This document shows, piece after piece, positions 44,646 through 55,990 of a stretch of 64,000 nt of DNA (positions are counted from its first letter, which is position 1; each line of letters starts with the position of its first letter). Both the position numbers and the translations under genes were made by a program. Under the pieces are notes generated by a model, which was not told the origin of the DNA, ran no database searches, and saw only the letters and a list, made by a program, of their open reading frames with translations. Origin of the DNA: Acidobacteriota bacterium (GTDB lineage Bacteria; Acidobacteriota; UBA6911; RPQK01; JAPXNP01); assembly GCA_037388505.1 (NCBI GenBank), contig JARRKC010000006.1:4046-68045 (forward strand), read 5' to 3'.

Positions 44646-44828
44646 GATCTAGCCGGACGGAAACCGGGAGCGGACGTGGGATAGGCATCCTGGTTGGCCC
44701 TTGACCTGAGGCCGCTGCGCTACGAGCATTGTTTAGCTCAGGGAAGCGGGGGCGACGGTTGGGGAAGCATCCTTGCTTGCCCGAAGGCCGGGACCTCTCG
44801 AGCGTTGATCATTCTGAGTCCCGAAGTT

Positions 44829-44852
44829 GAACGGGAGAACGGGAGAACGGGA
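44829..44852. repeat. (GAACGGGA)x3, same 8-nt family as 39936-39985
   Basis: Directly visible immediately upstream of ATG 44860. Confidence 0.75.
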
Positions 44853-44859
44853 AGAGAGC

Positions 44860-46593
44860 ATGCGCGAACGGGGAGCCAACCGGACGACCAACCTCCTTCT
44901 CCTGGGAGTCGTGCTGGTGGGAGCGGCTCTCCGGATCTGGGGAGTCGGTTTTGGACTTCCCATCAAGTCGAGTCTCTATATCCGACCGGACGAGAGCCTT
45001 CTGGTCGAGCCCGGCCTCCATCTGTTCGAGCGTTGGGGCGACCCTCTCTTCTACGTCTACCCCGCCCTGGTGATCGAGATCGTGGCGGTCCTGTTCCAGC
45101 TTGTGTTCTGGACGGGTCGTGTCGGCGGACATGTATCGCAGGATCGGCTGCTGCAGGATTTCGCCGCAGCTCCTTCAGCCTATTTCCTTGCCACCCGGTG
45201 GATTTCGGTTCTAGCGGGAATCCTCACCGTGTACATCGTCTTCAGGTTGACCGAGCGTCTGTCGGGGAACCGCTTTGCCGCTCTGGCTGCCGCTCTTCTT
45301 TACGCAGTGTCCCCTCTGGCGGTCAGAGATGCGCACTTCGGTGTGACCGACAACGTCATGGTCCTTTTCCTGAGCGTCTCTCTTCTGGCCGGTATCACTT
45401 ACGTTTCGAGTGACGACGTTTCCGCCCGAAGTCCGGTTCCCATGGGAGCCTGGTTCGGGCTGGCTGCGGCAAGTAAATACACGGCCTTCCTCCTCGGCCC
45501 CCGCCTTCTGACTGCCGTCCTCTTCCGAGAAGGAAAGTCGCCTGCGCGCTGTCTTCGACGGCTTGCAGCCGTGACGCTGCTCCCGGCCGGCATCTTCCTT
45601 GCTCTCAATCCCTATGTGATTCCCAATCTCCGCTCGACCATCCACGAGTTGCTGGACATCCTTCGTATTTTCTATCTGTGGCAGCCGGGAGACCCTCCCT
45701 GGGCGCTTCGAGAAGCGATATTGCAGGTCTTGAGGCCTCTGCGTTTCGGCCCGGGAGGTCTGGCGGGTCTGGCCTTGTGTGGTCTCGGAGTTGGTTTGAG
45801 TCTACGCTCGAACCGTAAGGAACGCGCCGCCGCCATCCTACTTGCAGGTTATCTGGGTCTTCACGTTCTTGCCCTTATTCCCTTCCGTCACCTGGTTCCC
45901 TATCGATACCTGCTGCCGATTCTGCCCCTGATTGCCGTCTTCGCGGGATCCAGTCTCCCGCACCTGCTGCGAGCGACGCAGCGAATACCGGTTCGGGTGG
46001 GGGCGGCGGCGATTCTGCTGTTCTGTTTGACGACGACCTTCTACCGTTCCGCTCAGATCGATGCAGTCCTTGCCGCGACCGACACTCGGACTTTGGCCGG
46101 AGAATGGATCGAGAAAAGGGTCCCGACTGCGATGCCGGTAGTGATCCTGTGCCCACCCGAAGCTGAACCCCAGGTTTACGAGCACCGAGCCTCACTGATG
46201 CGAAGGACCGAGTATGTTCGTCGACGCTACGGCGAAGCAGCCGGGGAGTTCATCTCACGCCTGTACCTGGATCAGCTCGCCGATCGGCGCAGAGAGGCCA
46301 GCGGATGGCAGCTCTTTCGCTTTCCCGAGCTGTCCGAATGTCCGAACCGTGTGGTTGCGGTCGTCACCTGCGATCACCCGCTGCGGATGGGGCGGACGCC
46401 ACCCGATCAGTCCGAACGATGGCAAGGAAGGATTCTCGAGAGCGTGAGCTTCCAATCCTGTAAGGGAGCGGAGCAGGCTGCCTGGGACAGGATCGACGCT
46501 TTGTTCGTTCCTTTCACGCAACTGAGTAGGGTCGAACGCCCCGGACCGAACATCGAGATCCGTATCATCGACCGGGGAACGGATTTACCATAG
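44860..46593 (+). CDS. ArnT/PMT-like (GT39/GT83-type) GT-C membrane glycosyltransferase
   Basis: ALRIWG...RPDE loop, YPAL, AHFGVTD, GLAAASKY and RYLLPILP; more than 10 TMs. Confidence 0.85.
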   Translation: MRERGANRTTNLLLLGVVLVGAALRIWGVGFGLPIKSSLYIRPDESLLVEPGLHLFERWGDPLFYVYPALVIEIVAVLFQLVFWTGRVGGHVSQDRLLQDFAAAPSAYFLATRWISVLAGILTVYIVFRLTERLSGNRFAALAAALLYAVSPLAVRDAHFGVTDNVMVLFLSVSLLAGITYVSSDDVSARSPVPMGAWFGLAAASKYTAFLLGPRLLTAVLFREGKSPARCLRRLAAVTLLPAGIFLALNPYVIPNLRSTIHELLDILRIFYLWQPGDPPWALREAILQVLRPLRFGPGGLAGLALCGLGVGLSLRSNRKERAAAILLAGYLGLHVLALIPFRHLVPYRYLLPILPLIAVFAGSSLPHLLRATQRIPVRVGAAAILLFCLTTTFYRSAQIDAVLAATDTRTLAGEWIEKRVPTAMPVVILCPPEAEPQVYEHRASLMRRTEYVRRRYGEAAGEFISRLYLDQLADRRREASGWQLFRFPELSECPNRVVAVVTCDHPLRMGRTPPDQSERWQGRILESVSFQSCKGAEQAAWDRIDALFVPFTQLSRVERPGPNIEIRIIDRGTDLP

Positions 46594-46656
46594 GATTGAC
46601 CCGGTAGGTCTGGTAAGCCCACGTCGGGCCAGCCGAGAGTTTCACAGGAGCATGCC

Positions 46657-47415
46657 ATGAGCAGCGATCTTGATCACTCTCAGGGGGCGCAGGAGAACGT
46701 CAATCTCGGGAATCGGCCGACGCTGTCGGTCGTCATGCCTGTTCATAATGAGGCCATGTACCTGAAATCCACGCTCGAGAGCTGGATCACGATACTTCGG
46801 AGTTTGCAGGTTCCGTTTGAATTCCTTGCCTACGACGATGAATCGACGGACGGCAGTGGGGAGATTCTGGATCAAGGTTCCGAGAACTTCTCGGAGCTAC
46901 ATGTCGTGCATCAACCCCATCTCGGGCATGGGCCAACGATCCGAGACGGCTACGAAGCTGCGGCAGGTGAATGGATCCTGCAGACGGACTCCGACAAAGA
47001 AACTCCTCCGGGGGAGTTCGATCAGCTTTGGCCGCTGCGTGACAGCTATGATTTCGTAATCGGTCGGCGCGTCGGAAGAAAGCTCAAGTTCGGCCGCAAG
47101 ATCGTGACCGCATGCGCCCGACTGGGAGTTCGATTCTTTTACGGATCCGGCGTTCGAGACGTCAATTCCCCTTTTCGCCTGATGCGAGGAGAGTTCGTTC
47201 GATCGTCGCTGCCGTTGATCCCCAAGGATTCCTTTGCACCCAATCTGCACCTGACGGGACTGGCGATTCGTGGGAAATGGCGGGTCCGGGAAGTCCCCGT
47301 GATCTCGCAGAATCACCGGATCGCCAGTGTATCGAGACCGTTGCCGGTAACGTTCGGAAAGCTTCTCTCCCTTTTCGGTGAGCTCCGGACCGTGTCCCGA
47401 AGAGCCCGAACTTGA
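46657..47415 (+). CDS. GT2 polyprenol-phosphate glycosyltransferase (DPM1-like)
   Basis: LSVVMPVHNE, DDESTDGS, GHGPT, QTDSD and DVNSPFRL. Confidence 0.88.
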   Translation: MSSDLDHSQGAQENVNLGNRPTLSVVMPVHNEAMYLKSTLESWITILRSLQVPFEFLAYDDESTDGSGEILDQGSENFSELHVVHQPHLGHGPTIRDGYEAAAGEWILQTDSDKETPPGEFDQLWPLRDSYDFVIGRRVGRKLKFGRKIVTACARLGVRFFYGSGVRDVNSPFRLMRGEFVRSSLPLIPKDSFAPNLHLTGLAIRGKWRVREVPVISQNHRIASVSRPLPVTFGKLLSLFGELRTVSRRART

Positions 47416-47446: not shown

Positions 47447-49936
47447 TTACTGCCGACTACTCCGCACGCGATAGAGCACCGTATCTCCCTGTGTGAATAC
47501 TCGGTCCCAGAAGACGCCGGCGTCGGCCTCGAATTTGGCCAGGCCCTTTTCTCCGTAGACAGCTCGTTCCAGGTCGCCGACCATGATGAAGTCCACATCG
47601 TATCGTTCGAGCACCGGAAGAATGTCCTGGCTGCGCGTCGATGAGTAGAGTCTTCGGACGTCCGCTCGCCTCCTCCGTACCTCAGCCCGAAAGTCCCTCG
47701 CCTGGTGCTGCTGGATTTCGTGTCCAGGCCAACCCAGGATCGTGGGCAGGCCTGTGGCCGAGCTTACCCTTCCGCCCGGGCCATAGTCGTCAGTGACGGC
47801 TTCGGCCAGAGTCGGCGCTCCGCTGACCTTCTTCTGCAGCCAGTGAATCGCGGCAAGATCCGTCTTCATCCTCAGCGTCTTTCCCTGCCAGGGATAGCGG
47901 ACGTCTGCTAATGCGGCGAGCCCGTCGAGACCGAACCCGGAGGCCCCCTCGGTGCGGTCCAGCGCCCGAGCCCGAAAAGCCAGGACCGGGTACAATAAGG
48001 CCGCAGCCAGAACCACAGCCAAACCCACTTGCCATCCGTTTCCGATTCGCCGAGCAGCGTCTGCGCCCGTGTCGGAAGACAGCCGCACCAGACCTGCCGC
48101 GCACGACACGCTCCAGAGGCACCAGATCTCGAAGTAGAGCTTGAAGACGAGGTTCATCCTCCCGATGTCGCCGTTGAGCGCGAAGAACTCCGGGATCAGG
48201 GAAAGCAGACAGCCGACGACAAGCAATCCGGTGATTCTCCGCTCATCAATCGAGGGAGTTCTCACAAAGAGGACGAGCAGAGCCGCGGTCAACAGGGACA
48301 CCATCCAGACAGCGCCCGAGATCAGACCCATCTGTTCGAGCAGCGTCACCATGATCAGGACCAAGAGCCCGGTCCACACCCCTATGTACCTTGGGAGTTG
48401 ACGCCGCCCCGAACGACGGTCTCCGTCGGAAAGCCGGCTCCAAAGCCACCAAGCCATAGTGAGGACGAACAATCCGTGAATCCACAGAAAAGCCGCCAGT
48501 GACGTCCGGCTCCCCTCCCAGAGTCTCACCCCACCGATCGGTGATTCATAGACCAGAAGGTGCGGAGTGAGGACCACGACCGCAACCAGGAGCGACAATC
48601 CGGCTTCCATCCAGTTCCTCCGTGTCCATTCGAGACGGGGAAGAACGAAGACCGCACCGACGGTCAGCAAAACCGCCAGTGGTAGTTCCCACGGGTTGAT
48701 GAGAACCACGGTTCCCAGCACAGCCCCGGTGACCAACATCCTCGATGGCCCGTACGACCGATCACTCCGCCCTTGATCCCGACCCTTCCCCCCGACCAGC
48801 GTCAGGAGCAGAAAGAGAAGCGCCGGCAAGGCGATCAGATGTGGATGCAAATCCGCGAACAGCACGGAGAAGAGCGGGAACTCAGAGACAGGGGCCGCCT
48901 CGGAAGCAGGATGAGAGATGACTCGAGTTGCGCTCCAGTAGAGCGACGACTGGGAGTACGGCCACGCAGCCCCGCGGATGAGCCAGGCAAAGAAGCCCTG
49001 TGCGGTCTGCCAGAAGGGACCGATGAGAGGAACCGTCACGCCGCCCACCGTTTCTCCAAGCCTTCGGAAGCCGGAGACGATCAGCCTCGGCTCATAGAGG
49101 TTTCCAACACCCAGAAGAAGGACAGGGCCCCAGAGTGCCCGAACGAACGAGCGTTGCTGCACCTTTGGCCTGGTCTCCGGCTCGTCCTCGTTGGCCGTGG
49201 ACGTCAATGCTCCGACGACCAGCAGGGCCCCGACGGCTGCGAAGGCGCCGATCGTCGGAACGGCGAGATTGAAGCCGATGGAAACGGGGACACCGGTCAG
49301 CCGGATCAGAAGGGCGAAAGGAACATATCCGAAATAGTAATAGTTCAGGGCATAACCGGACAGCCATGGATCCGCCGGCGGAAAATGGGACGTCCGCACA
49401 ACGGCATTGAGGATGCCCAGTTCCATCGGCTTTTCCCCACCCGTCGACGCGCTGAGAAGATCCGGATTGAGACAGCGAGCCAGGAGCAGGAGACCGAATA
49501 CTCCCCAAAAGAGGAGTTCTCCACCTGCGATCCAGGTTCGATTCAATGCCGACAGACCGGTCTCGGAGCCGGAACCGTCGAGTGACAGAACCCAGGCCAG
49601 ACTGCTCAAGACAGCAAAGGCGATGAGCACGCCCCAGGGCCAGAATGCCACAACGCGTGTCGCGGCCAGAGCCCATCCTCCCCAGCTGACGAAGAAGAGT
49701 CCCGCCCAGCGCGCCAGGAACCAGCCCTGATCGGGCCATTCTCCGAACATTCGACGGAAGAGCGGGAAGGTGAACCAACCAAGGGCCACGACTGTCAGAC
49801 ACCACGCCAATGAAGAAAACAGTTCCCCGAACGCCGGAATCAGGCCCCAACCGGCTGTCCCGGAAAGGCCACTCGAAGCTCGAGCCAGAACAGTGGCGAG
49901 CAGCGCTGCTGCCGGAACGTACGGCCGACGTTTCAA
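47447..49936 (-). CDS. DUF2298 (YYY-type) polytopic membrane protein
   Basis: GGEKPME, FPPADPWLSG, NYYYFGY, SEFPLFS, DLHPH, RMNLVFKLY and TGLPTILGWPGHE. Confidence 0.9.
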   Translation of the reverse strand: MKRRPYVPAAALLATVLARASSGLSGTAGWGLIPAFGELFSSLAWCLTVVALGWFTFPLFRRMFGEWPDQGWFLARWAGLFFVSWGGWALAATRVVAFWPWGVLIAFAVLSSLAWVLSLDGSGSETGLSALNRTWIAGGELLFWGVFGLLLLARCLNPDLLSASTGGEKPMELGILNAVVRTSHFPPADPWLSGYALNYYYFGYVPFALLIRLTGVPVSIGFNLAVPTIGAFAAVGALLVVGALTSTANEDEPETRPKVQQRSFVRALWGPVLLLGVGNLYEPRLIVSGFRRLGETVGGVTVPLIGPFWQTAQGFFAWLIRGAAWPYSQSSLYWSATRVISHPASEAAPVSEFPLFSVLFADLHPHLIALPALLFLLLTLVGGKGRDQGRSDRSYGPSRMLVTGAVLGTVVLINPWELPLAVLLTVGAVFVLPRLEWTRRNWMEAGLSLLVAVVVLTPHLLVYESPIGGVRLWEGSRTSLAAFLWIHGLFVLTMAWWLWSRLSDGDRRSGRRQLPRYIGVWTGLLVLIMVTLLEQMGLISGAVWMVSLLTAALLVLFVRTPSIDERRITGLLVVGCLLSLIPEFFALNGDIGRMNLVFKLYFEIWCLWSVSCAAGLVRLSSDTGADAARRIGNGWQVGLAVVLAAALLYPVLAFRARALDRTEGASGFGLDGLAALADVRYPWQGKTLRMKTDLAAIHWLQKKVSGAPTLAEAVTDDYGPGGRVSSATGLPTILGWPGHEIQQHQARDFRAEVRRRRADVRRLYSSTRSQDILPVLERYDVDFIMVGDLERAVYGEKGLAKFEADAGVFWDRVFTQGDTVLYRVRSSRQ

Positions 49937-51993
49937 GGCCTTTTCCTTCCTGTACGATCCGGAGAGGAGCCTTCGGTTCCAGCAGTCCGCAACAGCAGGA
50001 GGACGGCTTGGGTCGGGGGGACCGAGAAACCCGGAAGGTCCCGGTAGTCACGTTCGTAGAACGCTCCCCAGAGGCCTCGCAAGAGGCTACGTCGAGGCAG
50101 CTGTGGCATCAACGAAGCCCATGTCAGGGCGTTGTAGCCTGCATCCGGCCAGCACAAATACGGATACTTCCGGACTTCGAACCGACCGTTCAGCATCTCC
50201 TGCTGTTGATCGGTCAGCGGAGCCTTTGCGAGGATGACACGGGCATCTGTCTCGAGCGCGTCGGACACTGATGTGGTCTGATCTACATCCGACCGATCCC
50301 GCAGATACCAGCGCAGTGGGTAAGCAGCATCGACACTGACGCGGATGACGGCGGCCGCGTCGAGCGACTCCAGCCGGACGAGCAATCCCCGCATCCCGGG
50401 ATCGGTGTGAGCAAACACGGCGGGTTCGATTGGGGACTCAGCGTGGACGAAATTCAACATCCAGCCGGTGCGCAGCCAGACGGCCGTTCCAACGATCAAG
50501 AATCCTGTCACCAGGACCCGGAGAGGCCACCGGCAGGATGACCAACCCTGGACGCCAACCAGGACCGCGGCTACGATGCCAATCGCTGTCCCCAGCCAGC
50601 CGGCGTTCACGGCCGTTCGATCGAGGACGCTCGAGATCTCGGCCCCCGTGTGCAAGAAGGAAACCCACGAAACGAACAGGAATGCCGGTACTGCCAGCAA
50701 ACCCGCATCTTCGACGGAGAATCGCCGAAGCGACTCGAACAAGCGTCGCAGGCCGTCTCCTCCCAACCAACAGACAGGAAGAACGACATGCACCGCAAGC
50801 CACGGCATCTTCTCTCCGGCCAGCGAATAGGCGATGAGCGAAGCACCGAGCCAGTACAGGCAGAACCACCAGAACCGCTCCTGCAGATCCGGCCCCTCGC
50901 TGACCTGACCGTCTCTGGGTTTCGTCCGATTGACTCTGGCGTGGAGGACCACGGATACCAAAGCCAGAAGGACCGGCACGAACTCGTAAAGACCGACCAG
51001 CATCAGATAGTAGAACCACGGCTGCCCCCCGCGTCCTACAGGTTGCTGCTCGAGCCAATAGCCGACGCTTCCGAAAAAGCCGCTCACCAGACCGGACGGG
51101 TTCTTCAGGAACGTCGAGAAATAGAGCGCCTCAATGCCCCAACCGAGGGCGGCGAGGCGAACCCAGAGCGAGAAGTCCAACAGGCTTCGTTCGGATCGGC
51201 GACGCGACCAGGTTGCGGCCAGACACACCGCAAGCACAGCGCACAGGGACACGCATCCGGCCGCTGCTTCGGGGGATGAGTGGATTCGATCGGCAAACGC
51301 ACTCAAGCCGGGTACGGTGAGCGCCAGCGGCGCGGCAAAGGGGAGGAAGAGCGTGATGTGAAGAATCGCCAACTCTGTTGCCGGAACCCGCGCGGACCCG
51401 GGCCGCCGGGCTGTCCAAGCCAGCCAGCAGGTCATAACGGCAGCGAAGATGAAAGCCACTTCCTTGGTGGTCACCGCCAGGCTCGAGACAATGACCAGCA
51501 CGTAGAGATCGGTCGGAGCGCTGCGTTCGAGATATCGAAAACACGCCCAGATCCAGAGCGTGCAGAGTACGGCGATATAGATGTCGTTTCGAAGATACCG
51601 GCTGTAGAAAAGCAGCAAGGGGCTGAAGGCCAGCAGGAAGGCCACAGTCAGGGCTCCAACGCGGCCGACCCAGCGTCGGAAGAGCAGCGGGAGCAACACG
51701 AGCCCAATTCCGGCCAAGGCCGGCACCAGTCGAGCCGTGTAGTCGGACGCGCCGATGAAGCGGAAGACCAGGGCATCCAGGTAGAAGAGGACCGGTCCGT
51801 GGCTGACGGGAGAATGAAAATACCCGCCGGTCTCAGCCAGCCTCCAGGAGAAGAAGGCATGGACGCCCTCATCGAAGCTCAGGAGACGGTCGCCGAGCCC
51901 TGCCAGGCGTACGGCTGCTGCTGTGGCGGCAAGGAGAACCCAGGTCGCTGTACCGCCTCGGGGAAGACCACGGGTCCGGATCCAATCCTTCAT
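49933..51993 (-). CDS. TIGR03663/Agl23-like GT-C-type membrane protein
   Basis: DEGVHA, HGP, ARLVPAL, YSRYLRND, TKE, YWLEQ, QPWFYY and EKMPWL. Confidence 0.87.
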   Translation of the reverse strand: MKDWIRTRGLPRGGTATWVLLAATAAAVRLAGLGDRLLSFDEGVHAFFSWRLAETGGYFHSPVSHGPVLFYLDALVFRFIGASDYTARLVPALAGIGLVLLPLLFRRWVGRVGALTVAFLLAFSPLLLFYSRYLRNDIYIAVLCTLWIWACFRYLERSAPTDLYVLVIVSSLAVTTKEVAFIFAAVMTCWLAWTARRPGSARVPATELAILHITLFLPFAAPLALTVPGLSAFADRIHSSPEAAAGCVSLCAVLAVCLAATWSRRRSERSLLDFSLWVRLAALGWGIEALYFSTFLKNPSGLVSGFFGSVGYWLEQQPVGRGGQPWFYYLMLVGLYEFVPVLLALVSVVLHARVNRTKPRDGQVSEGPDLQERFWWFCLYWLGASLIAYSLAGEKMPWLAVHVVLPVCWLGGDGLRRLFESLRRFSVEDAGLLAVPAFLFVSWVSFLHTGAEISSVLDRTAVNAGWLGTAIGIVAAVLVGVQGWSSCRWPLRVLVTGFLIVGTAVWLRTGWMLNFVHAESPIEPAVFAHTDPGMRGLLVRLESLDAAAVIRVSVDAAYPLRWYLRDRSDVDQTTSVSDALETDARVILAKAPLTDQQQEMLNGRFEVRKYPYLCWPDAGYNALTWASLMPQLPRRSLLRGLWGAFYERDYRDLPGFSVPPTQAVLLLLRTAGTEGSSPDRTGRKRP

Positions 51994-54485
51994 GGCGATC
52001 CTTCCTCCGGTCCGAGCGAACGGCGAGCACAGTCGTAGACCCGGCAGGGCCCGCTCCGGAAAAGGCATCGACAGCTCTCGTCGAAGATGGAAGACTCCTC
52101 GGGGAGCCCGAACAGTTTCCGCTCTCTCTCGCCGACGAAGACGAAACGAACGCCGAGTGCCCTCAGACTTCGTTCGAGCACCGTTGGAGTGCGCGCGGAA
52201 TAGGTCGTGTCCACGAGCGCAGCCCGCTCTTCGATCATCCGCTGTCGTTCTTCCCCGGAACGCCATTGCGACTCATGGTCGATCCAGCCCAGAGGAGTCG
52301 GGTGACCAGTCAGAACACTGACCCGGTTGGAGGCAGGGTCTTCCCGACGGCCCACCGATTCCAAGACCGCTGAGTGCGGCGGGAGATGAACGTCGATCCA
52401 GTGCAGCGTCGAATAGAGATCGGGGGCCTGGTCTCGGATCGACCTCAGTGCATCGAGGTCATGGACCTGCCAGCCGGATTGGCCGAGGCGGGAACTCGCA
52501 GCAGCCACTGGGTAGAGCAGGCTGCCGGCTGCAATCAGTAGAGCCGCCGTCCGCAGGTTTCGGAAGATACGTCCGTGCGGCCTCCAGCTGAGGCCGTAGG
52601 CCCCGGCCAACTCGATGAGGATCCAGGCCCCGTAGTGCAACTTGAAGACACTGTTGACTCGATTGCCGAAAGCGTCATGCAGGAACAGGAACTCCGGGAG
52701 AAGAAGCAGAGCGAGCCCCGCAAGAACGAGAATCAACACGAAGCCGAGGATCGGTCCGGTCGGGTCGTCTTCAACGACCGCTGCGCGAGCTCGGATTCTC
52801 GTCGAGCCGCCGCCAAGTGCGCGCAGCACGAGGTAGATGGAAGCCACAAGACCCAACGCAACGAACGGCTCTCTGCTCCAGCGGAGCAATGCTGTACTGT
52901 TCAGAGCCTGCGTCTCTCCACCCAGGCTGGATATCCAGTCGACGATCCGCTTACTGTGATGAGCCCAAAGGAGCGCTCCCCCCAGGTACACAGGAACGGC
53001 CGTCACAGCCAAGGCCAGCCAGCGACCCGGAATTCGCCGGCTCGAGGGCGGAAGCACCAAGAAGAAAAGCAGCGCAAGGCCCAACCATCCGGGCCCGACA
53101 GCTGCCACGAAATCCGCCGGGTACGTCGGAAAGAGAAGGTTGGGAAGCAGTCCGCGGACGTCGGCGTCGGAGGTAAGCAGATGGGGGGCAAAACAAAGGA
53201 ACGCCACGAGAGGGATGGCCACCAGATCGATCCCTAACGCCCGAAGTACCCGGGGAGAAACACTCCGATCAGGCGAGCCGCTGTCAATCGACCGAAGACC
53301 CGACCACAGCACGGACCCTCCGATCAGGAGCGTTCCTGCCACGATATCCCAACTGTTGATGGCCGCGAGCGCACCCAGCAGGAACCCCAGGACGACTCGG
53401 TCCCTAACCTTCAGTTCGCCGGCCGGCCGTCGGACGGTCTTGGATCCCGTGCGATCCGAGGCCAGAAAGACATTGAGCAGGACCAGGATCAGCAACACGA
53501 GTACAGGCGCGGATTGGAGGTGCGGATGATTGTCCCCCAAAATGAAGCTGAAGGCCGGAAACTCGGTGATCGCGGGCAGGGTCTGGCCCGAGAGACCGAT
53601 GTCTCGAATCGCTCGACTGCTCAACCACCACCAGTCGGAACGTGAACCGGCATACCGTACCAGATCGTAGATTGTACGGAAATTGCCGGCCAGGCAGACG
53701 AGCGCGACCGACAGTCCTCCTCCAACCACCCCCCGGCTCAGGAGCCAAGCCCCCTTGGAGGTCGATGAACCCTGGTAGGAAGATGTGTGGCTTCCGGCGG
53801 ACACCAGATTGTACCCAACTCCGAAACAAGCACAGCAGAGCAGCGCGAACAGCGACGCGAGCCCCAGGTTGTAAGTGAGAGTCGGAGAGATTCCTCCCAG
53901 CTTCCCGACGAAGACCTGCAGCCAGTAGCCAAAGTAGTAGTAGCTGACGGGAAGACCGGCCAGCCAGGCGTCCCGAGCAGGAAAGACCGGACTGTGGGCA
54001 ACGCTGTTCATGAACATCAGGTCGCTGGGTTGTTCGGTATGAGATGCAGTCGGCAGCATGGCCCGGAGAAACAGCAGAAAGGCAAACGCCAGCAGAAAGA
54101 CCACTTCGATGGTCACAACCAGACGGAGGTTGTGGAGGACCCAGCTCAATGGTGGATCTGCCGACTGCTGTCCGGATCTCTCCTGGGCGCCCAGGGTTCT
54201 CTTTCCGGTGTCAAGGAGGGTTGGCCCCCAGCCAAATGCCGCAACGGCCGCAAGGCAGAACCAGGCTGACGCGGGTCCGAATTGCCAAACGCCGTAGACC
54301 CATCCCGACCAACAGAGCCAACCCGACATGAGCAGTCCCGCCGACCGGGCCACGGAATACCCTCGATCCGGCAGATTCTTCGCATACCGGTAGAGGGTTG
54401 GCCAGACTGCCCACTGGCATGCGAGCAGGATCAGGTACCAGATGGCGACCTCCCCGATCGGAAAATCGGCGAGACCTCGACTCAA
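51990..54485 (-). CDS. DUF2298 (YYY-type) polytopic membrane protein, second paralog
   Basis: TEQPSD, FPARDAWLAG, SYYYFGY, TEFPAFS, GDNHPH, NSWD, RVNSVFKLHY and TPLGWIDHE. Confidence 0.88.
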   Translation of the reverse strand: MSRGLADFPIGEVAIWYLILLACQWAVWPTLYRYAKNLPDRGYSVARSAGLLMSGWLCWSGWVYGVWQFGPASAWFCLAAVAAFGWGPTLLDTGKRTLGAQERSGQQSADPPLSWVLHNLRLVVTIEVVFLLAFAFLLFLRAMLPTASHTEQPSDLMFMNSVAHSPVFPARDAWLAGLPVSYYYFGYWLQVFVGKLGGISPTLTYNLGLASLFALLCCACFGVGYNLVSAGSHTSSYQGSSTSKGAWLLSRGVVGGGLSVALVCLAGNFRTIYDLVRYAGSRSDWWWLSSRAIRDIGLSGQTLPAITEFPAFSFILGDNHPHLQSAPVLVLLILVLLNVFLASDRTGSKTVRRPAGELKVRDRVVLGFLLGALAAINSWDIVAGTLLIGGSVLWSGLRSIDSGSPDRSVSPRVLRALGIDLVAIPLVAFLCFAPHLLTSDADVRGLLPNLLFPTYPADFVAAVGPGWLGLALLFFLVLPPSSRRIPGRWLALAVTAVPVYLGGALLWAHHSKRIVDWISSLGGETQALNSTALLRWSREPFVALGLVASIYLVLRALGGGSTRIRARAAVVEDDPTGPILGFVLILVLAGLALLLLPEFLFLHDAFGNRVNSVFKLHYGAWILIELAGAYGLSWRPHGRIFRNLRTAALLIAAGSLLYPVAAASSRLGQSGWQVHDLDALRSIRDQAPDLYSTLHWIDVHLPPHSAVLESVGRREDPASNRVSVLTGHPTPLGWIDHESQWRSGEERQRMIEERAALVDTTYSARTPTVLERSLRALGVRFVFVGERERKLFGLPEESSIFDESCRCLFRSGPCRVYDCARRSLGPEEGSP

Positions 54486-55342
54486 GTCACACTCCTGCGG
54501 ATCGAAGACGACTCCCGTGCTCGAACCGGATCTGGAGGTTGATCTTCCTCGACGAGTCCCCGAACGAATTCAGCCGCCTCCTCGGGTTGTGACCACCACA
54601 GTCTCCAGGCCGAAGCCCCTTGCCAGAGCTCAGAGAGGCGTGAGAGATGAGAGGCCAGGAAGTCGGGATGGTTGGTCGAGCAGTTGGCCAGCCAGGCAAT
54701 CCCTTCCGCTCGTGACATTCTCCTGGAAGAACAGCGAATGCCGGGGACGAACTCCGGGAAGATCGCGTACCGGATCCGCGGACGGGAATCTTGCGGCGCC
54801 AAGAGGTTTCGGGGAGGTACGACGTACTGGATGCCCTTGCGAGAACTGCCGGCGATACGCCAGCCCGGCTTCCCGGCGACCAGACGCTCAGCCCCAAACC
54901 GAATTCGGAAGGGTTTCGGATAGGGAATGGCATGCCCGTCCAGATCAACGCCCACCGCTTCCTCCGACAGATAGGCGAATCCACCTGATGCTACGAGTGC
55001 AAGCGAAAGCGTGCTCTTTCCGCAATGACTCGGTCCTGCCAGCAGGACGACGGAATCGGTCCCCAGAGGAAGCAATGCCGCGCTGTGTAGAATCAGGCAG
55101 TCTCGTGCATCGGGGAGCAGCCGGTCATAGACGAAGGACTCGATGACGTCGAAGGCATCGAACGGCGAACCCACGGATTGCCGAAAATGATCAGGTCGTT
55201 GCAGGATCCAGCCCGTAGCTGAGGATTCGAGGAGGAACTCCGACGCGGTCTCCGCGTCGGTCTCGGGAAGGGTGCTCAGCAATTGATCGAGAATCCGCGC
55301 AGCGTCCGGACGGACGGCCCGGATTCGGACCGCCTTACTCAA
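54482..55342 (-). CDS. HPr kinase-related P-loop kinase
   Basis: LHSAAL, GPSHCGKST, YLSEE and PYPKP. Probable TTG start at 55342 overlapping the PqqD gene end (the ORF extends to 55528). Confidence 0.82.
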   Translation of the reverse strand: MSKAVRIRAVRPDAARILDQLLSTLPETDAETASEFLLESSATGWILQRPDHFRQSVGSPFDAFDVIESFVYDRLLPDARDCLILHSAALLPLGTDSVVLLAGPSHCGKSTLSLALVASGGFAYLSEEAVGVDLDGHAIPYPKPFRIRFGAERLVAGKPGWRIAGSSRKGIQYVVPPRNLLAPQDSRPRIRYAIFPEFVPGIRCSSRRMSRAEGIAWLANCSTNHPDFLASHLSRLSELWQGASAWRLWWSQPEEAAEFVRGLVEEDQPPDPVRARESSSIRRSVT

Positions 55343-55613
55343 GAAGGCCCTGGTCCAGCATCTCACCGAGGATTCTCGGGACTTCATGGTCACAATCGAA
55401 GGATCCCTCGGGAACGGCTTCCTTGAGCTCCTGCACGATCTCGCTGACCGAAGTCTTGCCGTCGCACAAATCGAACACGGCAGCAGCGGCAAGGTTGAGG
55501 ATGTGGACGCGGTCGGCGCCACAATCATAGAGAATCAACTGGTCGTCGACCACCTCCTCGACGACACCCTCAGGGACAGAGGGCATCCAAGCTTGCTCTT
55601 TACCGATCGCCAT
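55335..55613 (-). CDS. PqqD-family / RiPP recognition element (RRE) protein
   Basis: VDDQLILYD...VHILN.AAAAVFDLCDG..SVSEI...L..GLL, the typical PqqD pattern. Confidence 0.9.
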   Translation of the reverse strand: MAIGKEQAWMPSVPEGVVEEVVDDQLILYDCGADRVHILNLAAAAVFDLCDGKTSVSEIVQELKEAVPEGSFDCDHEVPRILGEMLDQGLLE

Positions 55614-55649
55614 ATCGCCGCGACGTTCGTAGCTCGAGGAACCGAATTG

Positions 55650-55823
55650 CTAGTCCGGAACAGGAGTCGGACCAGGCGTCGCTGTCGGAGTCGGTCCTCC
55701 GGACTGCGCCACCACTTTGCGGTCCGATAACGTCACCAGCAGGGGGGCGGAAAGGCCCACACCGATAGCGAGCCGCTTCACAAACCGCCGCCGATCTTTG
55801 CTCTCTCCGTCTTGATTCATCAT
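55650..55823 (-). CDS. putative RiPP-like precursor peptide (Tat-like leader, Thr/Pro-rich core)
   Basis: MMNQDGESKDRRRFVKRLAIGVGLSAPLLVTLSDRKVVA-QSGGPTPTATPGPTPVPD; ends 36 nt upstream of the RRE gene. Confidence 0.75.
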   Translation of the reverse strand: MMNQDGESKDRRRFVKRLAIGVGLSAPLLVTLSDRKVVAQSGGPTPTATPGPTPVPD

Positions 55824-55844
55824 AGGCTTCAGCTGCTGCAACAC

Positions 55845-55873
55845 TGTGTAGCATAGGTACTTCTGGGCGTCAA
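55845..55873 (-). promoter_or_regulatory. possible sigma70-type promoter for the precursor operon
   Basis: TTGACG-N17-TACACA with TG extension on the minus strand; weak -10. Confidence 0.3.
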
Positions 55874-55990
55874 TCCCAATTCGTCATTGCCATTCAAAAA
55901 GATGCAGGGATCATCGCGCCCTCGGAACTGCGTCGAAGACTCTGTTCGCTGCTTCTGGAAACGCAGGTATGTGGAAGCTAAACTGAGGCT

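Follow-up and report, generated by a model that had tools for sequence, protein, structure and literature searches.

In a 64,000-nucleotide stretch of DNA from an uncultured salt-marsh Acidobacteriota bacterium (GTDB lineage Bacteria; Acidobacteriota; UBA6911; RPQK01; JAPXNP01; assembly GCA_037388505.1, contig JARRKC010000006.1, positions 4,046 to 68,045 of the forward strand), hereafter the window, a gene of 57 codons lies directly upstream of genes for a PqqD-family recognition element for ribosomally synthesised and post-translationally modified peptides (a RiPP recognition element, RRE) and for an HprK-related kinase. The encoded peptide is probably the substrate of these proteins, which together with a nucleotidyltransferase make up a divergent cassette of the HPr-rel-A type, similar to those of the linear polyphosphorylated peptides (LPPs) of Bacillota, and it probably has a leader of the twin-arginine translocation (Tat) type. 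An earlier note, made from the sequence alone, had described the peptide as a precursor with a hybrid Tat/RRE leader and a Thr-Pro-rich core. The gene and its parts are as follows (↓ marks the predicted cut).

55650-55823, minus strand: precursor or substrate peptide gene, 57 amino acids plus stop; a longer GTG frame begins at 55844
55776-55796, minus strand: twin-arginine motif D-R-R-R-F-V-K, residues 10-16; RR in 17 of 17 aligned peptides, TAT_signal profile match
55728-55775, minus strand: hydrophobic region RLAIGVGLSAPLLVTL, residues 17-32, including L-S-A-P-L-L (55737-55754) and the invariant Pro27
55707-55727, minus strand: c-region S-D-R-K-V-V-A, residues 33-39, with basic residues and a predicted signal peptidase I site, V-V-A↓Q
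55653-55706, minus strand: tail QSGGPTPTATPGPTPVPD, residues 40-57, with a conserved Q-[S/T]-G start and a P/T-rich remainder of variable sequence and length

Read on the minus strand, 55650-55823 gives MMNQDGESKDRRRFVKRLAIGVGLSAPLLVTLSDRKVVAQSGGPTPTATPGPTPVPD followed by a TAG stop, and every element that the earlier note had listed (DRRRFVK, LSAPLL, RK and V-V-A) was found in this translation; its count for the 18-residue tail (one Ser, four Thr, six Pro and no Cys or aromatic residue) was also matched. The ATG at 55823 or that at 55820 is the likely start, because only 8-11 residues precede KDRRRF in the homologues, and the placement at 55823 that had been proposed agrees with their N-termini.

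The peptide gene is real and is under purifying selection. Pairwise comparison of four genomes over the 34-codon block KDRRRF...AQSG gave ratios of non-synonymous to synonymous change (pN/pS) of 0.07-0.45 at a pS of 0.45-0.73, and in environmental DNA (two runs covering the gene fully and one partly) the single variant found in the gene, 55773 C>T, was read as a synonymous change of an Arg codon. A chance open frame in GC-rich DNA might be suspected, as no strong Shine-Dalgarno site was seen before the ATG at 55823 and a search for promoter-like sites on the minus strand gave none. However, with synonymous change close to saturation at such pN/pS values, the stop codon kept behind a tail of 12-19 residues in 10 close homologues and the lone variant silent, this explanation is, as judged from sequence evolution, already refuted, and we give it next to no chance.

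The gene is confined to a small group of organisms. A six-frame search of 60 related Acidobacteriota genomes gave clear orthologues (E ≤ 1e-17) in two genomes of the same genus (G001 and G002) and one of the same family (G005) and no others, the remaining rows being noise at E > 0.01. A profile search of 5.8 billion proteins returned eight close members at E ≤ 1e-18 and one weaker one, and a library of 1.8 billion representative proteins gave nine matches at E ≤ 0.001, three of them at or below 1e-10. Three loci encoding close members were retrieved, all from metagenome-assembled genomes of uncultured Acidobacteriota. The search at greater protein lengths yielded only P0031 (133 amino acids), which is this gene with its start called too far upstream, and no fusion of the peptide to PqqD or to other domains in the clade of the window; no relative emerged when metagenomes were scanned with the peptide profile. 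Going by run labels, 16 studies have near-identical DNA in their metagenomes, which come from salt marsh, marsh and marine sediment, and contigs from four DNA runs place the gene itself in salt-marsh, marsh, marine-sediment and rhizosphere data. The clade is restricted to a few uncultured Acidobacteriota.

By the comparisons made here the leader comes out as the best-conserved protein segment of the locus. Its identity to the orthologues in G002, G001 and G005 was 91%, 88% and 79%, respectively, against 74%, 76% and 42% for PqqD and 57%, 53% and 35% for the kinase. In ten close members the tail is rich in P, T, S, G and A, is 12-19 residues long and begins Q/N-[S/T]-G/N, after which it diverges in both sequence and length. 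A signal part that is better conserved than the mature part and the enzymes is the reverse of the pattern of ordinary signal peptides. The part of the gene that encodes the tail also contains a weak 12-nucleotide tandem repeat (55656-55681; 2.2 copies, score 38), and small duplications could drive the variation in tail length.

An alignment of 17 peptides, comprising 11 of the window's clade and six from genomes with canonical HPr-rel-A cassettes (described below), showed which positions are held. The twin arginines, a Pro and a hydrophobic residue (Leu, Val, Ile or Met) two positions after it were each kept in all 17, so that the earlier reading came through this comparison. The residue three positions before the Pro was Leu, Val or Ile in every peptide, position -3 of the predicted cut was V, L or A in all 17, and a basic residue in the c-region was present in all 17 by inspection. 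The Pro lies 12 residues from the -1 residue of the cut in 15 peptides and 13 in the other two; position -1 is Ala in 14 of the 17 and position +2 is Ser or Thr in 15. The orthologues have R-R-R-F-L-K where the window peptide has D-R-R-R-F-V-K, giving RRxF[LV]K overall. Beyond these motif positions the two groups of peptides share almost nothing.

The peptide gene belongs to a conserved block in which a nucleotidyltransferase gene on the plus strand is followed, on the minus strand, by the peptide, PqqD and kinase genes and then by genes for three large membrane proteins.

55991-57130, plus strand: NTP_transf_5 nucleotidyltransferase (PF14907, 3.6e-32), oriented divergently from the peptide gene; same position in loci L017 and L018
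55335-55613, minus strand: PqqD-family RRE, 92 amino acids (PF05402, 6e-9; TIGR04353, 22.1 bits, cut-off 35)
54482-55387, minus strand: HprK-related kinase, 301 amino acids from the ATG at 55387 (TIGR04352, 55.9 bits, cut-off 200)
51990-54485, minus strand: DUF2298/chlor_Arch_YYY membrane protein, copy a; start and the stop of the kinase gene overlap (TTGA); present in each of the four genomes
49933-51993, minus strand: PMT_2/Agl23-like GT-C membrane protein; ATG overlaps the DUF2298 stop (ATGA), with a GGAGGAAGG site ahead of it; kept in L016-L018
47447-49936, minus strand: second DUF2298 membrane protein; start overlaps the PMT_2 stop (TTGA)

The block is syntenic in all four peptide-bearing genomes, across two genera. 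PF14907 was recovered in three of the four; at L016 an open reading frame (ORF) without a Pfam match had been picked, yet a homologous ORF of 348 amino acids sits there. Eight aligned kinase sequences all have the P-loop G-K-S-T-L and share one invariant His and one invariant Glu, and comparison of the window kinase with sequences in the PDB gave matches to the P-loop only, at E > 0.04. If the kinase starts at the conserved MKSRESS, its frame and that of PqqD overlap by 53 nucleotides (55335-55387, minus strand), and those of the orthologues do likewise. No terminator-like site was found between the peptide and PqqD genes, nor any Rfam match within 55300-56100.

The association extends beyond this clade. 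Taking as canonical a cassette whose kinase exceeds the TIGR04352 cut-off of 200 bits (the cut-off for the PqqD protein, TIGR04353, being 35 bits), we found six such genomes in a phylum sample of 401 Acidobacteriota, with kinases scoring 245-359 bits. In each of the six an RR mini-ORF, with a hydrophobic stretch that contains a Pro and an A-x-A-type site, lies directly upstream of the PqqD gene, and the Pro and its spacing are those of the window peptide. With the order peptide-PqqD-kinase held in 4 of 4 genomes of the clade and an analogous peptide in 6 of 6 canonical ones, the earlier proposal that the peptide belongs with the PqqD protein gains support. NCBIfam scans covered four of the six canonical PqqD proteins: three exceed the TIGR04353 cut-off (54-69 bits) and the fourth (G264), at 22.9 bits, does not reach 35; the same scan of the canonical peptides gave no family besides TAT_signal. 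The canonical tails are unrelated to each other, 17-51 amino acids long and mostly not P/T-rich, and no DUF2298 gene was seen beside these cassettes in the 3.5-kb loci examined. The window locus thus shares the three enzyme types and the RR mini-ORF with HPr-rel-A but differs in gene order, in enzymes that score below the cut-offs and in the shorter tail. It is a divergent clade of this cassette, distinguished by a minimal (PT)n tail, a divergent nucleotidyltransferase, translational coupling to DUF2298/PMT_2 genes and restriction to a few uncultured Acidobacteriota. In the literature searched we found no description of twin-arginine mini-proteins fronting such cassettes, no named substrate for the HPr-rel-A system and no mention of 'HprK-related kinase'.

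These patterns bear on the simplest alternative, that the product is an ordinary small Tat- or Sec-exported protein whose gene is a chance neighbour of the cassette with no functional link to it. The signal features taken singly are generic and the P/T-rich tail is linker-like, as that explanation would have it; but adjacency is kept in 4 of 4 clade genomes and 6 of 6 canonical genomes although the tails are unrelated, and the signal part outconserves both the mature part and the neighbouring enzymes. Ordinary export is already disfavoured on these grounds and we consider it very improbable.

The closest published system is that of the LPPs, which is described as restricted to Bacillota (Popov et al., Nat Commun 2026, PMC13381572). 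According to the text of that report, the kinase LppK puts several phosphates on Ser3 of the LPP core, cleavage after Thr-1 by the peptidase requires that the leader be presented by the RRE, and the leader carries the motif YxxPxVLxHQxIxFETxxS (PMC13381572); its main text contains none of the words Tat, twin-arginine and signal peptide. On this motif the count from the Pro to the cut is 12 residues, with the phosphorylated Ser just beyond the cut, which is the geometry of the window peptide, and the spacing of 12 found in 15 of our 17 peptides equals the published one. As far as that text describes the LPP precursors, both kinds consist of a conserved leader and a variable C-terminus, both have a Ser next to the cut (LppA Ser3; Ser or Thr at +2 in our set), both would lose the leader to an enzyme of the signal peptidase I type (a prediction for the window peptide) and both are encoded among glycosylation genes. 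The window cassette has a discrete RRE (PF05402), an HprK-like kinase (weakly matching TIGR04352 but with an invariant P-loop) and an NTP transferase (PF14907); the last is presumably the equivalent of LppN, for which that text gave no Pfam accession. The differences from the system as published are that the conserved block has neither an SpI-like (archaeal-type) peptidase nor an MsbA-like exporter, that the leader has a twin-arginine motif and Leu, Val or Ile in place of Tyr, that the phylum is Acidobacteriota, that the clade's tail is 12-19 residues long and P/T-rich and the nucleotidyltransferase divergent, and that the operon runs on into the DUF2298 and PMT_2 genes. If the peptide is, as is most likely, the substrate of the cassette, it would be an undescribed relative of these recently reported phosphorylated peptides.

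The earlier note had seen in LSAPLL an echo of the YxxPxL motif by which lasso leaders bind an RRE. The best solved relatives of the PqqD profile are indeed the lasso RREs TbiB1 (1.9e-4) and TfuB1 (7.7e-3), and the set of 17 peptides shows what is expected of an RRE leader, namely an invariant Pro, a hydrophobic residue at +2 and a fixed distance to the cut. The published lasso/LPP motif is [Y/W]xxPx[L/V/I/F/A] (PMC13381572); the Pro and the hydrophobic Pro+2 of the proposed echo held in 17 of 17, but Pro-3 is Leu, Val or Ile and never Tyr or Trp. An in silico binding model built from a 10-row PqqD alignment and the 17-row peptide alignment gave a median of 0.39 (0.20, 0.46 and 0.39), against 0.01 for the best control, with the runs agreeing in at least 72% of contacts and a partner predicted local distance difference test (pLDDT) score of at least 50. 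Of 157 solved complexes 116 attain the mark that this reaches, as do 2 out of 215 pairs that were mismatched; scores at or below 0.60, however, were obtained for just 18 of the 157 solved complexes and for both of the passing mismatches; moreover, solved RRE-leader complexes exist, and the pass may reflect likeness to those. The hybrid leader is thus favoured by the comparison of homologues, whereas the literal YxxPxL is not present and the model for PqqD binding the peptide supports it weakly.

Among weak profile matches, P0014, P0016, P0021 and P0029 join RR[RE]F[LI]K to a literal Y-x-x-P-x-[L/V/I] (in P0014, RRRFLK and Y-A-A-P-I-L), and P0014 and P0029 have an A-x-A↓Q site 12 residues past the Pro, making a literal Tat-plus-YxxP hybrid. 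A metagenome scan with P0014 found ordinary signal peptides only, and its own locus was not among them. Six others (P0013, P0019, P0020, P0022, P0025 and P0027) have a similar RR leader and Cys-rich tails.

The features of a Tat signal are also present. The D-R-R-R-F-V-K motif fits the n-region consensus S/T-R-R-x-F-L-K and is followed by the uncharged LAIGVGLSAPLLVTL and then by S-D-R-K-V-V-A↓Q. In a scan of the genome with TAT_signal (TIGR01409, cut-off 16.7) the peptide scored 17.0 bits (16.3 bits for the 64-amino-acid form), ranking 17th of 37 matches and being the sole one in an open frame shorter than 170 amino acids. TatC is encoded about 24 kb past the window (222.8 bits, G000:C6:92229-92855), two genes for bacterial signal peptidase I of the LepB type lie on contigs C14 and C3, and no archaeal-type SpI over the cut-off was found anywhere in the genome. 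The conserved block lacks genes for a lasso cyclase, a B2 protease, a signal peptidase and an exporter. The earlier note had held that a Tat-type leader would explain a missing protease and exporter; both are indeed wanting from the block while TatC and two LepB-type peptidases are encoded elsewhere, although for the exporter this needs qualifying, since an ABC-2 transporter is encoded nearby in the window's genus and is absent from the other genus.

That transporter is part of a different account, in which the leader is a cytoplasmic RiPP leader that merely resembles a Tat signal and is recognised by the RRE alone, and the product leaves otherwise (for example by the neighbouring ABC-2 transporter) or stays inside. 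The invariant Pro and fixed spacing are traits of RRE leaders and not of Tat signals in general, and genes for an ABC ATPase and ABC-2 permease, 2.6 kb from the peptide gene, are kept in two genomes of the same genus. They are, however, missing from the locus of the other genus (L017, in G005), the conserved block has no leader peptidase, and RRxF[LV]K, an uncharged h-region, a basic c-region and an A-x-A-type site are kept together across otherwise dissimilar peptides. We regard a purely cytoplasmic leader as quite unlikely.

Putting the substrate role and the Tat-type leader together, a pathway of four steps may be drawn. First, the cytoplasmic PqqD-type RRE would bind the leader at its hydrophobic stretch, [L/V/I]xxPx[L/V/I/M], as suggested by the geometry of the motif and the solved relatives of the RRE and, less so, by the binding model. 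The later steps are drawn from homology, motif conservation and operon structure. The RRE would present the conserved Q-[S/T]-G region to the HprK-like kinase, which by analogy with LppK acting on Ser3 would likely yield phospho- or polyphospho-Ser41, and the PF14907 nucleotidyltransferase may extend the phosphate group. The same leader would then serve as a twin-arginine signal, the modified peptide passing through Tat and the housekeeping signal peptidase I (LepB) cutting after V-V-A, so that Tat and signal peptidase I would take the place of the SpI-like peptidase and the ABC exporter that LPP clusters of Bacillota have for this purpose. The Gln that would then be N-terminal could cyclise, as the earlier note had suggested. 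Finally, outside the membrane, the co-translated PMT_2/Agl23-like and DUF2298 proteins might plausibly use the P/T-rich tail as an acceptor. That all four steps are right is doubtful.

Cytoplasmic proofreading chaperones such as TorD, DmsD and NapD are known to bind Tat signals, and a comparable arrangement can be imagined here, in that a cytoplasmic binder would hold an RR substrate until its maturation was done; the proposed binder would differ in having the PqqD/RRE fold, and maturation in being modification of the peptide and not cofactor insertion. In the boldest form of the scheme this would be a RiPP pathway that exports by the general Tat route, the PqqD-type RRE acting as a proofreading chaperone, Ser41 being phosphorylated (perhaps nucleotidylated or phosphoglycosylated) with export only after modification, and the PMT_2 and DUF2298 proteins O-glycosylating the (PT)n tail, so that a mini-glycopeptide resembling mucin would result, to be placed in the envelope or matrix of the acidobacterium. 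We think it unlikely that every part of this is correct.

The last step draws on the arrangement of the operon. From the kinase through DUF2298 and PMT_2 to the second DUF2298 gene, stops and starts overlap as TTGA, ATGA and TTGA behind purine-rich, Shine-Dalgarno-like sites. PMT-family GT-C enzymes O-mannosylate Pro/Thr-rich exported segments, and here a PMT_2-family membrane protein is co-operonic with a predicted exported P/T-rich segment; the likeness has its limit in that this protein is closest to TIGR03663 (Agl23-like), whose members are not, to our knowledge, known protein O-mannosyltransferases. For DUF2298 no second Pfam family was found at E up to 5 and no sequence relative in the PDB; the name glycosyltransferase was not applied to it, as these comparisons gave no other relative. 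The earlier note had suggested the Thr-Pro repeats as sites for a kinase or for O-glycosylation. The target of a kinase would more likely be the Ser or Thr at +2, because this is conserved in 15 of 17 peptides whereas the repeats vary; the suggestion of O-glycosylation, on the other hand, gains an argument from the coupled PMT_2 and DUF2298 genes.

The same coupling to three large polytopic membrane proteins could also be taken to mean that the peptide is an uncleaved, membrane-anchored mini-protein, either a small subunit of a DUF2298/PMT_2 complex or a lipid-proximal acceptor for it, which PqqD and the kinase would regulate or load. A best-conserved hydrophobic segment and a very short tail would suit such a role. 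The hydrophobic core, though, is just about 15 residues long, with Gly and Pro among them, a good cleavage site of the V-x-A/A-x-A type stands at a fixed position, and canonical cassettes with a like leader were not seen with DUF2298 in the loci examined. A membrane anchor is on balance distinctly improbable.

Several observations weigh against a cassette substrate with a Tat-type leader. The window kinase (55.9 bits) and PqqD protein (22.1 bits) fall far below the HPr-rel-A thresholds (200 and 35), and the 17 peptides form two related groups (11 close and 6 canonical) and are not 17 independent samples. Tyr or Trp at Pro-3, the anchor of lasso and LPP leaders, is found in none of the 17. The TAT_signal score sits right at the cut-off (16.3 or 17.0 against 16.7), and a cargo of 18 residues would be unusually small for Tat; the system can carry small, unstructured, hydrophilic cargo. 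Since ordinary Sec signals, too, can have A-x-A with Q-[S/T]-G behind it (L075 is one), the Ser or Thr at +2 may be a generic feature of mature N-termini. Lastly, DUF2298 is present in 12 related genomes, and in eight of these DUF2298/PMT_2 pairs come without the peptide, so that the coupling might be due to an operon fusion at this locus. Within 1.5 kb of DUF2298 those eight relatives have neither an RR nor a PT mini-ORF, which makes the membrane pair an independent module, recruited to the peptide locus.

In lasso peptides of the paeninodin type, an RRE, an HprK-like kinase and an NTP transferase tailor a ribosomal peptide, and the window locus has the same tailoring set. It differs in having no cyclase or B2 protease and in a C-terminal residue that is not a conserved Ser, the ten close members ending in D, G, S, D, G, D, V, A, P and P. 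A lasso peptide was rejected because the cyclase and the B2 protease are not at the locus, and, given the variable last residue, phosphorylation of a terminal Ser in the manner of paeninodin was rejected as well. The LPP report names lasso peptides of this type, both phosphorylated and phosphoglycosylated (PMC13381572). The genome's sole adjacent cyclase/B2 pair, Transglut_core3 (76.5 bits) and an Asn_synthase-like gene (101 bits) at G000:C4:267734-269922, lies on another contig and is probably a lasso-peptide B/C pair; its RRE may be fused, because no PqqD match was reported on contig C4.

The surroundings of the block contain further genes of possible relevance.

44827-47415, plus strand: second PMT/PMT_2 protein and a GT2 glycosyltransferase, converging on the operon end
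57167-58423, plus strand: Gfo/Idh/MocA oxidoreductase with its own twin-arginine signal, GRREFMK, directly after the nucleotidyltransferase; same-genus genomes only
58442-60724, minus strand: ABC-2 permease fused to a C-terminal amidohydrolase (best NCBIfam match Xaa-Pro dipeptidase, 3.4e-29, below cut-off)
60526-61449, minus strand: ABC ATPase adjoining the permease/amidohydrolase

The second PMT_2 gene, the GT2 gene and the three membrane-protein genes of the operon form a five-gene membrane glycosylation island. A Pro-directed hydrolase beside a Pro-rich peptide may or may not be coincidence. In the outer flanks of the G005 locus radical SAM and GH15 genes replace the oxidoreductase and ABC genes; a radical SAM protein of 531 amino acids and an ORF of 120 amino acids lie just upstream of the nucleotidyltransferase gene (L017:3385-4980, plus strand).

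The trio of chaperone, kinase and nucleotidyltransferase is catalogued in NCBIfam as HPr-rel-A, and its only characterised relatives, going by the text of the LPP report, are those of Bacillota, which have a dedicated peptidase and pump (PMC13381572). What is new at the window locus is the (PT)n tail of miniature size and the fact that genes of membrane glycosylation are translationally coupled to the cassette, a link that recalls how LPP and paeninodin clusters lie, for reasons not yet explained, together with polysaccharide loci. With a predicted product of 18 residues and so close an operon link to membrane glycosylation, a very small construct would suffice to test the idea. If it is true, the second role of the leader as a twin-arginine signal would account for cassettes that work without peptidase and exporter genes, and peptide modification would be linked to the one export route that is built for substrates that mature in the cytoplasm.

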